NCBI GenBank assembly: GCA_009692155.1
Contig: SHZW01000009.1
Location: 12,272-76,271, forward strand
DNA: 64,000 nt
Direction of reading: 5' to 3'
DNA from: Nitrospiraceae bacterium
GTDB lineage: Bacteria; Nitrospirota; Nitrospiria; Nitrospirales; Nitrospiraceae
The position numbers were made by a program, and so were the translations under genes. The notes under the pieces are model-generated. The model was given only the letters and a program-made list of their open reading frames with translations. It had not been told where the DNA came from and did no database searches. Positions 49,868 through 55,296 of this stretch are shown in pieces; within the stretch, counting starts at the first letter, position 1; each line of letters begins with the position of its first letter.

Positions 49868-50350
49868 TCAGGTCGGCTGGAACTCGGCTCGAGCAACCTG
49901 ACGATCCTTGATCCAATAGGCCCGCAGGTCCGGTGTCGTCTTATGTTCCAGGGAAATGATGAGATAGGCCGCGTCTGGATAGTAGGCGAGCCCCACGTCT
50001 GTGGTGGAGGGATAGGCGGGCGAATGGGTGTGGGAATGGTAGATCACGGCTAACTCAAGATTCCGCTGGCGCATGTCCTTGAAGGCCGCCAGCATCTCTT
50101 TGGGGTCCATGAAGTAGGCGACTTCGGCCCTGGTGGAATCCGGCAGGTGTCCGAGCTGCTTGACGTCGGCGCCGTCGAAGACCTCCATAGCCCTGGCGTC
50201 TTTTGCCACGGTGTTCGTGATCCGGTAATGGCGCGAGACTGCGCCGTTCGTGCCGGCCAGCAACCCGCAGCATTCGAACGGGTCCAGTTCACGCGCGTGA
50301 GCGATCATGTCGTCCAGAATCTGCCGGGGGATTTTGAGAGAAGGCGTCAT
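49868..50350 (-). CDS. JAMM/MPN+ metallopeptidase (Mec+/HcyD-like sulfur-carrier C-terminal peptidase)
   Basis: The ECCG element and HSHTHSPAYPSTTD give the JAMM motif E...HxHx7Sx2D. Confidence 0.85.
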   Translation of the reverse strand: MTPSLKIPRQILDDMIAHARELDPFECCGLLAGTNGAVSRHYRITNTVAKDARAMEVFDGADVKQLGHLPDSTRAEVAYFMDPKEMLAAFKDMRQRNLELAVIYHSHTHSPAYPSTTDVGLAYYPDAAYLIISLEHKTTPDLRAYWIKDRQVARAEFQPT

Positions 50351-50353
50351 TTT

Positions 50354-50521
50354 GTCCGAAAGTCGTCAAGTCTGAAAGTCATAAAGTCTTGGCTTAGTCA
50401 TCAAGTTCTAAGGTCGTAAAGTCTTCAGGTCGACTTGACGTTATGACTTTACAGACTTTCTGACTTGATAGACATGCCTTCTCGGTAGACTTTACGACTT
50501 GATGACTTTGGACTTTCAGAC
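50354..50521. repeat. AAGTC-octamer hairpin element (copy 4, longest)
   Basis: gtccgaaagtcgtcaagtctgaaagtcataaagtc...gtaaagtcttcaggtc | gacttgacgttatgactttacagactttctgacttgat...gactttacgacttgatgactttggactttcagac. The centre is at gtcgac (about 50430). Confidence 0.9.
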
Positions 50522-50530
50522 CGGGCTGCA

Positions 50531-51334
50531 TCAAATCGCGCAGGAGACGGCGTAGTCGCCGCTGAGATTTTTAATGGTTGGATGCGGGCCGCAGAGGCGG
50601 CAGTTGGGATCCTTGGGCCGGGAGACTTTTCTGAATTTCATGTCCAGCGCATCATAAATCAGGAGCTTATCCGCCAGCGTATCGCCGACTTTGAGAATTT
50701 CCTTGATCGCCTCCGCTGCTTGCAGCACGCCGATGGTGCCGGCCAGCACGCCCAGCACGCCGGCTTCCTGGCAGTTGGGCACGAGCCCGGCCGGAGGCGG
50801 CTCGGGGTAGAGGCACCGGTAGCAGGGGAACCCCTCGTGCGGCTTGATCGTTGCCAGCTGGCCTTCAAACCGAAAGATGCTGCCTGAGATCAGTGTCTTC
50901 TTCGCAAAGAAGCAGGCATCGTTGATCAGGAACCGCGTCGAAAAATTGTCCGATCCGTCAACAATGATGTCGTAGTCATGGAACAACCGCATGATGTTCT
51001 CGGCCGACACGTTCTCCTGGTAGGTTTTGACCGTGATGTCCGGATTCAAGGCCGCGAGCGTCTGCCGGCCCGACTCGACCTTGGGAACGCCGATGCGGTC
51101 TGTCGTGTGCAAAATCTGACGCTGCAGGTTGGAGAGATCCACCACGTCGCCGTCGACCAGTCCAAGCGTGCCGACTCCCGCCGCCGCCAGGTACAGTGCG
51201 GCCGGCGATCCCAGTCCACCGGCGCCGATAATCAGCACCTTGGCCTGGGACAGCTTTTTTTGTCCCTTGCCGCCGACTTCGTTCAGGATAATGTGGCGGC
51301 TGTACCGTTCCAGTTGCGCTTCGGTAAATTCCAT
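50531..51334 (-). CDS. ThiF/MoeB-family E1-like adenylyltransferase, copy 1 (no rhodanese domain)
   Basis: RYSRHIIL, GAGGLGSPAALYLAAAGVG, DLSNLQRQ and Zn motifs CYRC...CRLC. Confidence 0.9.
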   Translation of the reverse strand: MEFTEAQLERYSRHIILNEVGGKGQKKLSQAKVLIIGAGGLGSPAALYLAAAGVGTLGLVDGDVVDLSNLQRQILHTTDRIGVPKVESGRQTLAALNPDITVKTYQENVSAENIMRLFHDYDIIVDGSDNFSTRFLINDACFFAKKTLISGSIFRFEGQLATIKPHEGFPCYRCLYPEPPPAGLVPNCQEAGVLGVLAGTIGVLQAAEAIKEILKVGDTLADKLLIYDALDMKFRKVSRPKDPNCRLCGPHPTIKNLSGDYAVSCAI

Positions 51335-51350
51335 GGCTTCGCTCAGATTA

Positions 51351-51421
51351 GAGGTTATAGGCTATGGGTAATGGGCGAAGAAAGCACCTATAGCCCATCA
51401 CCTCGCGCCTATTGCCTATTC
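51351..51421. repeat. ATAGGCT/ATGGG-heptamer hairpin element (copy 2)
   Basis: Left arm gaggttataggctatgggtaatgggcg. Right arm cacctatagcccatcacctcgcgcctattgcctattc. It lies between the NIL gene stop and the ThiF copy 1 start. Confidence 0.8.
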
Positions 51422-53263: not shown

Positions 53264-54064
53264 CTTCAGCTCGCAGGCTTCCTGCTCGTAATCGATCAGC
53301 TTCGTGATGGTCGGGTGTTCGCCGCACAGGGGGCAGTGCGGATTGCGCTTCGTTTTGATTTCACGGAACGACGCTTTCTTGGCGTCGTAGTCCAGCAGCC
53401 GGTCGGTCAGCAGCCGGCCGATGCCGAGCACGATCTTCAGCGCTTCGGTCGCTTGCAGGGTTCCGATGACGCCGGCCAGCGCGCCGATCACGCCGGCTTC
53501 CTGACAGCTCGCGACCAGCCCGGCCGGCGGCGGCTGTTTGAACACGCACCGGTAGCAGGCTGATTTCTTCGGAAGGATCGTGGTCACCCGGCCGTCAAAA
53601 CGGAGGATGCCGCCGTGCACCAGCGGCTTGTCGGCAAAGACGCAGGCGTCGTTGATCAGGAACTTGGTGGGAAAATTGTCCACACCGTCGATCACAACGT
53701 CGTAGCCGGAGACGAGCTTCAAGGCATTGCCGGCCACAAAGCGCTCTTCGTGCAGCACGACCTGAACATCCGGATTGAGCGCCTGAATTTTTTCCTTGGC
53801 CGACAGAACCTTGGACCGGCCCACGTCCGGGGTGTAGTGGATGATTTGCCGCTGCAGATTGGACAGGTCCACCGCATCGCTGTCGATCAAACCGATCGTG
53901 CCGACGCCCGCCGCGGCCAGATAGAATGCAGCGGGGGAGCCGAGACCGCCGGCGCCGACGATGAGGATCTTCGCCCTGGCGATTTTCTTCTGTCCCTTGC
54001 CGCCCACCTCCGGCAATAGAATGTGACGGCTGTAGCGGGTAACCTGTTCGTCTGTGAATTCCAT
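53243..54064 (-). CDS. ThiF/MoeB-family E1-like adenylyltransferase, copy 2 (no rhodanese domain)
   Basis: RYSRHILL, GAGGLGSPAAFYLAAAGVG and CYRC...CPLC. It is a paralogue of copy 1. Start ATG 54064 (MEFTDEQ). The last residues KQVKVEA are encoded by a repeat. Confidence 0.9.
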   Translation of the reverse strand: MEFTDEQVTRYSRHILLPEVGGKGQKKIARAKILIVGAGGLGSPAAFYLAAAGVGTIGLIDSDAVDLSNLQRQIIHYTPDVGRSKVLSAKEKIQALNPDVQVVLHEERFVAGNALKLVSGYDVVIDGVDNFPTKFLINDACVFADKPLVHGGILRFDGRVTTILPKKSACYRCVFKQPPPAGLVASCQEAGVIGALAGVIGTLQATEALKIVLGIGRLLTDRLLDYDAKKASFREIKTKRNPHCPLCGEHPTITKLIDYEQEACELKQVKVEA

Positions 54065-54069
54065 GTCAG

Positions 54070-54161
54070 CAAGTCCGAAAGTCGTCAAGTCCGAAAGTCG
54101 TCAAGTCCGAAAGTCTTGAGATGAACGACTTGAAGACTTTACGACTTTTTGACTTTTGGAC
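54070..54161. repeat. AAGTC-octamer hairpin element (copy 5)
   Basis: Left arm holds three consecutive copies of the 16-mer caagtccgaaagtcgt (the third incomplete: caagtccgaaagtc). Right arm is gacttgaagactttacgactttttgacttttggac. It lies between the cysK stop and the ThiF copy 2 start. Confidence 0.9.
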
Positions 54162-54169
54162 CATTGGTT

Positions 54170-55099
54170 TCAGATATTGAAATATTTCTCGATGCTGATA
54201 TAGCGCTCGCCTGTGTCGCAGAGAATCGTCACGATGTTCTTGCCTGGGCCGAGTTCCTTCGCCACCTTCTGAGAGGCAAACACGTTGGCGCCGGCGGAGA
54301 TGCCCACCAGGAGCCCTTCCTTCTTGGCCAGCAGCTTGGCCGTCTGATACGCCTCGTCGTCCGTCACGGTGATCACACCGTCCAGAATCGTCCGGTTCAA
54401 TACTTTTGGCACGAACCCCGCGCCGATGCCCTGAATCTTGTGCGGGCCCGGGTCTCCGCCGGACAGAACCGGCGAGCCGGCCGGCTCCACGGCAATCACC
54501 CTGATTTTAGGGTTGCGCTCTTTAAACACTTCGCCGCAGCCGGTGATCGTGCCGCCGGTGCCGACGGCCGCCACGAACGCATCAATCTTGCCGTCCATTG
54601 CTTCCCAAATCTCCAGCGCCGTAGTTTTCTTGTGCATCGCGGGGTTGGCCGGATTGGAAAACTGGTCCGGCATGAAATACGACGGATTCTGCGCCACGAT
54701 GCTCTCCGCTTCCTTGATCGAGCCCTTCATGCCTTCCCATGCCGGCGTCAGCACAAGCTGCGCGCCGTAGGAGGACAGCAGACTGGCCCGCTCCATGCTC
54801 ATGCTCTCCGGCATGACGAGGATCAATTTATAGCCGCGTACGGCTGAGACCAATGCCAGGCCGATGCCGGTGTTGCCGCTGGTCGGTTCAACGATCGTCC
54901 CGCCCGGCTTCAGCTTGCCCTGCCGCTCCGCCTCGTTGATCATGCTGAGGCAGATCCGGTCCTTGACGCTCCCGCCAGGATTGAAAAACTCGACCTTCCC
55001 GTAGATGGTACCCGCGCCCTCAGGGGAGAGCCGGTTCAGGCGAACCAGCGGGGTCCGGCCGATCAGTTCCGTGATGTCCTTATGCGCTGAAACCGTCAC
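54170..55099 (-). CDS. cysK: cysteine synthase (CysK-type O-acetylserine sulfhydrylase family)
   Basis: PLVRLNRL, PLP lysine GGSVKDR, TSGNTG and GPHKIQGIGAGFVP. The GTG start overlaps the stop of the ThiS-like gene (GTGA). Confidence 0.92.
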   Translation of the reverse strand: MTVSAHKDITELIGRTPLVRLNRLSPEGAGTIYGKVEFFNPGGSVKDRICLSMINEAERQGKLKPGGTIVEPTSGNTGIGLALVSAVRGYKLILVMPESMSMERASLLSSYGAQLVLTPAWEGMKGSIKEAESIVAQNPSYFMPDQFSNPANPAMHKKTTALEIWEAMDGKIDAFVAAVGTGGTITGCGEVFKERNPKIRVIAVEPAGSPVLSGGDPGPHKIQGIGAGFVPKVLNRTILDGVITVTDDEAYQTAKLLAKKEGLLVGISAGANVFASQKVAKELGPGKNIVTILCDTGERYISIEKYFNI

Positions 55100-55296
55100 C
55101 GGCCACCGCCCATGTAAAAGAGAAACTCCAGCGCGTCGCCTGCTTTGACGGGGGTATTACCCAGGTGATCCCGCTCCACCATGGCGTTGTTCAGCTCGAC
55201 CGCGACCATGTGGGGGTCGATATTTTTGGTTTTCAGCAGGTCCAAAACCGTCCCCCCCTGGACCTCTTCCGGCTTCCCGTTGATTTTGACCTGCAT
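55096..55296 (-). CDS. ThiS-family sulfur-carrier protein ending ...MGGGR
   Basis: 66 aa from ATG 55296: MQVKINGKPEEVQGGTVLDLL...VKAGDALEFLFYMGGGR. I verified the final codons ggc ggt ggc cgg tga. One residue (R) follows the Gly run. Confidence 0.8.
   Translation of the reverse strand: MQVKINGKPEEVQGGTVLDLLKTKNIDPHMVAVELNNAMVERDHLGNTPVKAGDALEFLFYMGGGR

Follow-up and report, generated by a model that had tools for sequence, protein, structure and literature searches.

What is made by a locus that sets two ubiquitin-like sulfur carriers, two E1-like activating enzymes, two pyridoxal phosphate (PLP) enzymes and a single JAMM peptidase in one array? The question is raised by an uncultivated Nitrospiraceae bacterium (GenBank GCA_009692155.1), whose genome is available as a 27-contig, 1.93-Mb assembly that is 89.6% complete. 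The window, by which we mean the whole 64,000-nucleotide stretch of DNA analyzed, covers positions 12,272-76,271 of contig SHZW01000009.1, and coordinates below are counted from its first letter. An initial annotation had described the locus as two carrier and PLP-enzyme modules with one JAMM, in an array of eight genes running the same way. Both descriptions are borne out: the eight open reading frames (ORFs) are all present on the minus strand from 49868 to 55296, and the gene content gives the two modules. With families assigned by Pfam and NCBIfam profile models, and scores given in bits, the genes in order of transcription are as follows.

55096..55296, minus strand: ThiS-type sulfur carrier, 66 amino acids (aa) from ATG; TIGR01683 thiS 55.8 bits (cut-off 37.45), PF02597

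54170..55099, minus strand: CysK-type O-acetylserine sulfhydrylase, 309 aa; TIGR01139 cysK 460 bits (cut-off 351)

53243..54088, minus strand: E1-like adenylyltransferase copy 2 (ThiF2); PF00899 280.8 bits

51927..53186, minus strand: MetM-like ThrC-family PLP enzyme, 419 aa; PALP domain, PLP motif SFKDR

51655..51930, minus strand: MetO-like MoaD/CysO-type carrier, 91 aa; PF02597 66.5 bits, TIGR01687 moaD_arch above its cut-off

51416..51655, minus strand: stand-alone NIL-domain protein, 79 aa; PF09383, E = 9e-14

50531..51334, minus strand: E1-like adenylyltransferase copy 1 (ThiF1); PF00899 275.5 bits

49868..50350, minus strand: JAMM/MPN+ metallopeptidase (Prok-JAB); PF14464 79.8 bits, motif E...HSHTHSPAYPSTTD

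The answer that we consider probable is that the operon makes sulfur amino acids by way of protein thiocarboxylates and in addition provides the cell's general carrier machinery. What the sequence shows is gene content, homology and synteny, together with natural fusions and counts over the whole genome; all of the chemistry is inferred from these. In the proposed scheme, the JAMM peptidase would trim the residues past the Gly-Gly from each carrier precursor, an E1 would adenylate the exposed Gly-Gly, and sulfide from sulfite reductase or a rhodanese persulfide would convert the adenylate to a thiocarboxylate. The MetM-like enzyme would then combine the MetO-like thiocarboxylate with O-phosphohomoserine into a carrier-homocysteine adduct, from which the JAMM peptidase would free homocysteine, and CysK would in the same manner make cysteine from the ThiS-like thiocarboxylate and O-acetylserine. 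The NIL protein, a methionine-binding-type domain, would probably be a regulator or adaptor of the homocysteine module. Both E1s and the JAMM peptidase would also serve three carriers encoded elsewhere, namely the thiamin ThiS, a MoaD-MoaE fusion and a TtuB-like carrier.

That the eight genes belong together is indicated first by their spacing. The ThiS-like TGA stop and the CysK GTG start overlap in a GTGA, the ThrC-like stop and the start of the MetO-like carrier share 4 nucleotides (nt), and the carrier and NIL genes share 1 nt. No minus-strand terminator-like sites were found between the eight genes. The order is identical in all 15 of the relatives fetched, which come from four families of the order Nitrospirales, and the array is also present in five further Nitrospirota families and in Ca. 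Manganitrophaceae. Retention of gene content and order in relatives excludes a chance arrangement; this is a genuine operon, and an ancient one within Nitrospirota.

The homocysteine half has the closest precedent. In Streptomyces albulus, MetM and MetO, together with Mec and MoeZ, convert O-phosphohomoserine to homocysteine (Hasebe et al. 2024, Appl Environ Microbiol 90:e01247-24, as summarized in bioRxiv 10.1101/2024.10.14.618325 and PMC12172450). The ThrC-like enzyme of the locus shares only 36% identity with the true ThrC encoded on contig C7, and on the TIGR00260 thrC model the true ThrC scores 331 bits against about 287-288 bits for the locus copy. The locus copy also has an N-terminal Cys4 zinc ribbon, an extension that the true ThrC does not have, and the zinc-ribbon residues C9, C12, C24 and C27 are conserved in the ThrC-like family alignment. 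The protein is 77-95% identical across the order, and both ThrC-family copies are found in 29 Nitrospirales genomes out of 31 searched; the other two assemblies are incomplete. A scan of 185,579 species genomes for ThrC-like loci gave 80, spanning Cyanobacteria, Chloroflexota, Actinomycetota, Nitrospinota, Planctomycetia and Thermodesulfobacteriota, and in about 75 of these a carrier gene directly follows the ThrC-like gene. The initial annotation had considered this pairing of a ThrC-family enzyme with a MoaD-like carrier to be swapped relative to Mycobacterium tuberculosis, a reading that gives way here to the published MetM/MetO module. The MetM-like enzyme and the MetO-like carrier are 61% and 57% identical to a Microcystis pair, for which PMC12172450 gives identities of 51.6% and 47% to S. 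albulus MetM and MetO, and the enzyme is 52% identical to a Micromonosporaceae homologue. The MetO-like precursor ends ...AIAGG-N, with tails of 0-11 residues in its relatives, and in other phyla the MetO-like carrier is found fused to NIL or to an E1.

The distribution of other homocysteine enzymes points the same way. A genuine Cys_Met_Meta_PP enzyme (MetY, MetB, MetC, MetZ) was found in none of the 31 Nitrospirales genomes, five of which are single-contig, with a best match of 37.8 bits to a partial domain; in the present genome DUF39 and MetX were searched for as well, and neither was found. A homocysteine route by DUF39 and a NIL-ferredoxin protein was considered and ruled out, as the genome has no DUF39 and the locus NIL has no ferredoxin domain or conserved Cys. 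Among 121 Nitrospirota genomes, the MetM-like enzyme is present in 90 and Cys_Met_Meta_PP in 47, in a largely complementary pattern by family. Families f1, f2, f6, f9 and f13 in our numbering have the MetM-like enzyme only, family f10 has Cys_Met_Meta_PP in 20 of 20 genomes and the MetM-like enzyme in 4 of the 20, and a few Nitrospirota families carry the two together. In several other Nitrospirota families, the true thrC comes directly after metM-metO-NIL, which fits two enzymes sharing O-phosphohomoserine. A canonical thrB (homoserine kinase) was not found in the whole genome, the best match scoring 30 bits, and since the true ThrC and the MetM-like enzyme would both need O-phosphohomoserine, a non-canonical kinase is expected. 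From these homologies and distributions, we conclude with high confidence that the operon most likely makes homocysteine from O-phosphohomoserine by a MetM/MetO-type route.

Several features are shared with S. albulus MetM/MetO. Both have a ThrC-family enzyme beside a MoaD/CysO-type Gly-Gly carrier with a separate true ThrC, both have a Mec-type JAMM and an E1, and in both the carrier has residues past the Gly-Gly. The differences are that the E1s here lack the rhodanese domain that MoeZ has, and that the module is part of a larger operon of eight genes, which also encodes CysK, a further carrier and a further E1. Control by an S-adenosylmethionine (SAM) riboswitch, as in Streptomyces, is also ruled out here, since an Rfam scan of the whole window gave no riboswitch or other RNA family. 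A further difference is the conserved third partner, NIL, which is not part of the published pathway description as it is summarized in those sources.

The NIL protein carries the one NIL domain that the genome has, in single copy. Its AlphaFold2 model has a predicted local distance difference test (pLDDT) score of 91.3, and the PDB structures that it matches best are those of the MetN C2 domain (TM-scores 0.66-0.84 over MetN chains). MetN C2 is the methionine-binding regulatory domain of the MetNI importer. NIL is found beside MetM/MetO-like pairs in at least six phyla, including Nitrospirota, Chloroflexota, Thermodesulfobacteriota, Planctomycetia, Omnitrophota and one member of Actinomycetota, and beside none of the cyanobacterial pairs among the loci surveyed; in five loci, and in as many lineages, it is fused directly behind the carrier Gly-Gly. 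The family has an invariant C-terminal Glu and no conserved Cys, so that NIL is unlikely to relay sulfur. Judging by the structural model, NIL is probably a methionine-sensing regulator or adaptor of the homocysteine module.

The JAMM peptidase has an intact motif, E...HxHx7Sx2D, and is the genome's only Prok-JAB match above cut-off. Among the complete relatives, no stand-alone JAB protein besides the locus JAMM exceeds the cut-off. Some relatives also have a 785-aa ORF with ThiF-like and JAB domains (G008:C1:3659730-3660821 and G017:C1:3482946-3484034); this fusion of E1 and JAB has no connection with the operon and is possibly part of a defence-type system. As to what the JAMM peptidase might act upon, the genome holds five carriers of the ThiS/MoaD family, and the complete relatives have five or six. 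The C-terminal ends of the five are as follows.

ThiS-like carrier of the locus: GGG-R

MetO-like carrier of the locus: AGG-N

Thiamin ThiS, contig C27, directly upstream of thiG-thiE: GGG-QEA

MoaD in a MoaD-MoaE fusion, contig C1, adjoining moaC: FAGG-linker-MoaE

TtuB-like carrier adjoining ttuA: SGG + 23 aa

Residues past the Gly-Gly are present in all five, and variable tails are the rule across the order. In five loci with MetO-NIL fusions (L112, L113, L114, L148 and L173) and in the fusions of locus L181, a whole partner domain follows the carrier Gly-Gly in frame. The MetO-NIL, MetO-E1 and ThiS-CysK fusions read as natural polyprotein-like precursors. A parallel is found in Deinococcus, where DRJAMM cleaves MoaD-MoaE (PMC8832034), and another in M. 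tuberculosis, where MoaX needs cleavage for activity (PMC4326299). The present case differs from these and from Thermus in that nearly every carrier is a precursor, and in that the E1s and the JAMM are inside a cysteine and methionine operon. A sixth ThiS-family protein, found in family f2 (genomes G022, G025 and G028; loci L202-L204), has no C-terminal Gly-Gly (...DGDEISLV-AHDGMS...) and hence cannot be a thiocarboxylate carrier.

The five carriers also bear on whether the two locus carriers might simply serve thiamin or the molybdenum cofactor (Moco), an outcome that the initial annotation had named as fatal to its proposal. That role is ruled out. The genome has a dedicated thiS-thiG-thiE and a MoaD-MoaE fusion elsewhere, and no thi genes are found at the locus; the MoaD-like carrier of the locus is 31% identical to the MoaD-MoaE fusion.

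The two E1s are related, at 59% identity over 257 residues, and a rhodanese domain is found in neither, both as first described. They are 267-281 aa long, and the ThiF2 start is probably the Met of MEFTDEQ at 54064. Compared with the E. coli proteins, ThiF1 scores slightly higher with MoeB (199 bits) than with ThiF (191 bits), and ThiF2 slightly higher with ThiF (192 bits) than with MoeB (184 bits), which offers only a hint that the two may be divided by carrier class. In an E1 tree, ThiF2 forms a separate, fully supported clade confined to lineages with the ThiS-like carrier and CysK in the array, indicating that it originated jointly with the cysteine module. ThiF1 falls with the single E1s adjoining MetO/NIL in other phyla. 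Redundancy of the two copies, the other outcome feared for the proposal, is not supported, since both are retained as distinct orthologous groups across the whole clade.

It had also been proposed that each pathway has a private E1. The genome-wide counts do not allow this: a search of the whole genome found exactly two ThiF-family E1s, both in the operon, and the complete relatives have exactly two strong E1s each. With two E1s against five or six carriers, the E1s must also serve thiamin, Moco and tRNA thiolation. Such sharing has precedents, as M. tuberculosis has one E1 for its amino-acid and Moco carriers, MoeZR serving both CysO and MoaD (PMC3227635), and in the TtuB/TtuC system of Thermus thermophilus, few E1s activate the carriers for thiamin, Moco and tRNA thiolation.

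With no rhodanese domain on either E1, the source of the sulfur is of interest. The initial annotation saw no sulfur donor, and for the window this holds, with no rhodanese gene in its 64 kb; for the genome it does not, as five rhodanese domains (on other contigs), an IscS-type cysteine desulfurase and a two-domain assimilatory sulfite reductase are encoded elsewhere. A tblastn search of the whole genome for a CysK/CysM-family paralogue found none. With no cysteine synthase found other than the locus CysK, the primary sulfur donor for making cysteine cannot be cysteine itself. By analogy with M. tuberculosis and Wolinella, it is likely that sulfide or a thiosulfate-derived persulfide attacks the acyl-adenylate. 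The HcyS-HcyD-HcyF-MetY system of W. succinogenes (Krishnamoorthy and Begley 2011, as cited in PMC5764234) is similar in having an extra C-terminal residue removed by a JAMM and a rhodanese-less E1, and in both systems the sulfur likely comes from sulfide made by sulfite reductase. It is unlike the present locus in that its PLP enzyme is MetY, and the one here is of the ThrC family and predicted to use O-phosphohomoserine.

The cysteine half is less secure. The first point is what the synthase is, and here the assignment as CysK-type rather than CysM-type stands, in that the cysK model is passed, the cysM models score 296-298 bits, below their cut-offs of 394-413, and the best solved structures are canonical CysK enzymes, 2egu and 2q3b (M. 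tuberculosis CysK1). The gene for CysE is on the same contig (C19:6363-6848), about 5 kb before the window start. In the classical arrangement, the C-terminal Ile of CysE inserts into the CysK active site. The CysE encoded here ends ...ENPQARG, with no C-terminal Ile, which is weak, suggestive support for use of a carrier by CysK.

The second point is what connects the synthase to the carrier. The ThiS-like precursor ends YMGGG plus one residue in every relative, although that last residue may be R, W, A, V, C, T or Q. In family f4 (two genomes; loci L040 and L041) the stop codon between the genes is absent, and the ThiS-like carrier and CysK form one 374-aa in-frame protein. An equivalent in-frame ThiS-CysK fusion, accompanied by a MetO-E1 fusion, is found in a metagenome-assembled genome of Actinomycetota (L181). 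By analogy with MoaD-MoaE, the known fusion of a carrier to its acceptor, the fusions point to CysK as the acceptor enzyme of this carrier. Reading these arrangements together, we have moderate confidence that cysteine is made by the ThiS-type carrier acting with CysK.

The nearest described system is CysO-CysM-Mec+-MoeZ of M. tuberculosis, in which a Gly-Gly carrier is likewise coupled to a PLP enzyme of the cysteine-synthase family together with a JAMM and an E1. It differs in its carrier, which is of the CysO/MoaD type with about 90 aa and not a 66-aa ThiS type, and in its synthase, an O-phosphoserine-specific CysM where the present locus has canonical CysK and a cysE. The E1 here is also without rhodanese, and in some cases carrier and synthase form a single in-frame fusion. 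Neighborhoods of ThiS/MoaD, JAB and E1 genes with cysteine synthase were described by Iyer, Burroughs and Aravind in 2006 as classes 4c-4e and predicted to link sulfur transfer with the making of cysteine (PMC1779556); the ThrC-like enzyme, NIL and the duplicated E1s are absent from that survey. The coupling or fusion of a ThiS-type carrier to a canonical CysK is a real variant on which we found no paper, and a literature search returned nothing on a Nitrospira operon of this kind or on a CysK using a carrier.

Several observations weigh against the scheme as a whole. The link to S. albulus MetM/MetO is indirect, passing through the Microcystis pair; the NIL family offers no conserved Cys; and an assembly at 89.6% completeness leaves room for a third E1 or a second JAMM, although the complete relatives show none. 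The remaining objections concern the cysteine half. The CysK is of the canonical sulfide-using type by every sequence test, and to our knowledge no CysK accepts a thiocarboxylate. In loci of the Nitrospinota type, CysK adjoins MetM and a ThiS-like gene is missing, which suggests that CysK may do without the carrier.

One alternative is that the homocysteine half alone is carrier-based and CysK is an ordinary sulfide-dependent enzyme, the ThiS-like protein being, for example, a spare thiamin-type carrier or a sulfur buffer. The linkage would then reflect cysteine feeding sulfur to the carrier systems, as Iyer et al. 2006 suggested (PMC1779556). The cysK model score and the nearest structures, which are sulfide-using CysK enzymes, are what would be expected, as is the presence of cysE and sulfite reductase. 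The ThiS-like protein scores above the cut-off of the thiS equivalog model and shares 40% identity with the thiamin ThiS encoded on contig C27, and in Nitrospinota the CysK-MetM-MetO-E1 loci manage with no ThiS-like gene. A spare thiamin carrier is hard to reconcile, however, with the dedicated thiS beside thiG and thiE elsewhere, and an ordinary CysK does not explain why a stop/start overlap and two independent in-frame ThiS-CysK fusions mirror MoaD-MoaE, why the ThiF2 clade is restricted to arrays holding the ThiS-like carrier and CysK, or why CysE is without the C-terminal Ile that plugs the active site. We consider this alternative unlikely.

Much less likely is that the locus is mainly a ubiquitin-like conjugation system of the SAMP/TtuB kind, with the JAMM as a deconjugase and the PLP enzymes as targets or bystanders. 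The MoaD-like carrier scores 58.7 bits on SAMP1, the E1s 318-339 on UbaA and the JAMM 71.5 on desampylase, and proteins with dual carrier and modifier roles are known in Haloferax and Thermus. All three scores are nevertheless below the curated cut-offs of 60, 450 and 130, E2- and E3-like genes are absent, it is metabolic enzymes that the carriers are closely coupled and fused to, and the failure to find any other homocysteine route points to a biosynthetic role. Finally, that the ThrC-like protein is a second threonine synthase or another beta/gamma-replacement enzyme, with the adjoining carrier devoted to Moco or another cofactor, would fit its passing of TIGR00260 at 287 bits and its naming as threonine synthase by every source that names it, but is very improbable given a better-scoring true ThrC at 331 bits, a separate MoaD-MoaE fusion for Moco, the family-specific zinc ribbon, near-universal carrier adjacency, phyletic complementarity with MetY/MetB-type enzymes, and the statement in GapMind 2026 that threonine synthase is a common misannotation of MetM.

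If synthesis of both amino acids from protein thiocarboxylates is accepted as the function of the operon, a wider reading suggests itself, which we offer tentatively because as a joint claim it is doubtful. In it, about all of the biosynthetic sulfur of Nitrospirales would travel on ubiquitin-like carriers, with one JAMM, two E1s split by carrier class, CysK acting on a ThiS thiocarboxylate and NIL as a methionine brake or adaptor. The sulfur of cysteine, methionine, thiamin, the molybdopterin of nitrite oxidoreductase and tRNA thiolation would all be carrier-borne. The carriers would be translated as precursors or as fusions to their partners, and the one JAMM would mature them all, much as deubiquitinases act on ubiquitin precursors. 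ThiF2 would serve the ThiS-type carriers and ThiF1 the MoaD type, and the canonical CysK would take up the thiocarboxylate of the ThiS-type carrier in its cleft, where the tail of CysE binds in other systems.

The other features of the locus are these.

55343..55372, minus strand: promoter-like site 5' of the first gene; TTGACA, 18 nt, TG-TATCGT, 10/12 sigma-70-like positions

53201..53265, no strand assigned: hairpin repeat element over the ThiF2 3' end and the gap between ThiF2 and the ThrC-like gene; inverted repeat with 29-nt arms, 83% complementary

50396..50508, no strand assigned: hairpin repeat element in the gap between ThiF1 and JAMM; inverted repeats of 20-22 nt

The promoter-like site is the region's best sigma-70-like match. 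The hairpin at 53201..53265 is probably a genome-wide element resembling repetitive extragenic palindromic (REP) sequences and not a component of the pathway, and the final ThiF2 residues look as if they are encoded by the repeat. The gap between ThiF1 and JAMM is likewise filled by REP-like hairpins. Just downstream of the JAMM gene and overlapping its end, a small protein (49434-49916, minus strand) has a signal-peptide-like segment and no family match; its position is kept in families f1 and f2 and not in f3 or f4. The flanks (42607-48936 and 55415-59742) look unrelated to sulfur metabolism, with an RND efflux pump, a HEAT-repeat protein, peptide deformylase and an ABC exporter upstream, and a PLD-like protein, an FAD monooxygenase, a TPM-domain protein and an HbpS-like protein downstream. 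On contig C27, thiS-thiG-thiE (about 44.3-46.7 kb) adjoins a proteasomal ATPase with OB domains of the Mpa/ARC type, which fits the Pup-proteasome system known in Nitrospirota.

Nitrospira-type nitrite oxidizers are key in the nitrogen cycle and in wastewater treatment, and the operon would explain how such bacteria make homocysteine and probably cysteine. With no MetY/MetB-type enzyme in the 31 genomes and no MetX or DUF39 in this one, automated tools may call them methionine auxotrophs. The public records that name the ThrC-like gene all call it "threonine synthase", a likely misnaming of MetM, and GapMind 2026 (bioRxiv 10.1101/2024.10.14.618325) gives that as a common misannotation. The finding extends the 2024 MetM/MetO pathway to a whole phylum, although the chemistry itself is already published; the under-described additions are the NIL partner, the ThiS-type carrier coupled or fused to canonical CysK, and the carriers as precursors. 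If the two E1s and the JAMM are the only ones, as appears to be the case, the operon would be a single dependence point for all sulfur cofactor synthesis in the cell.

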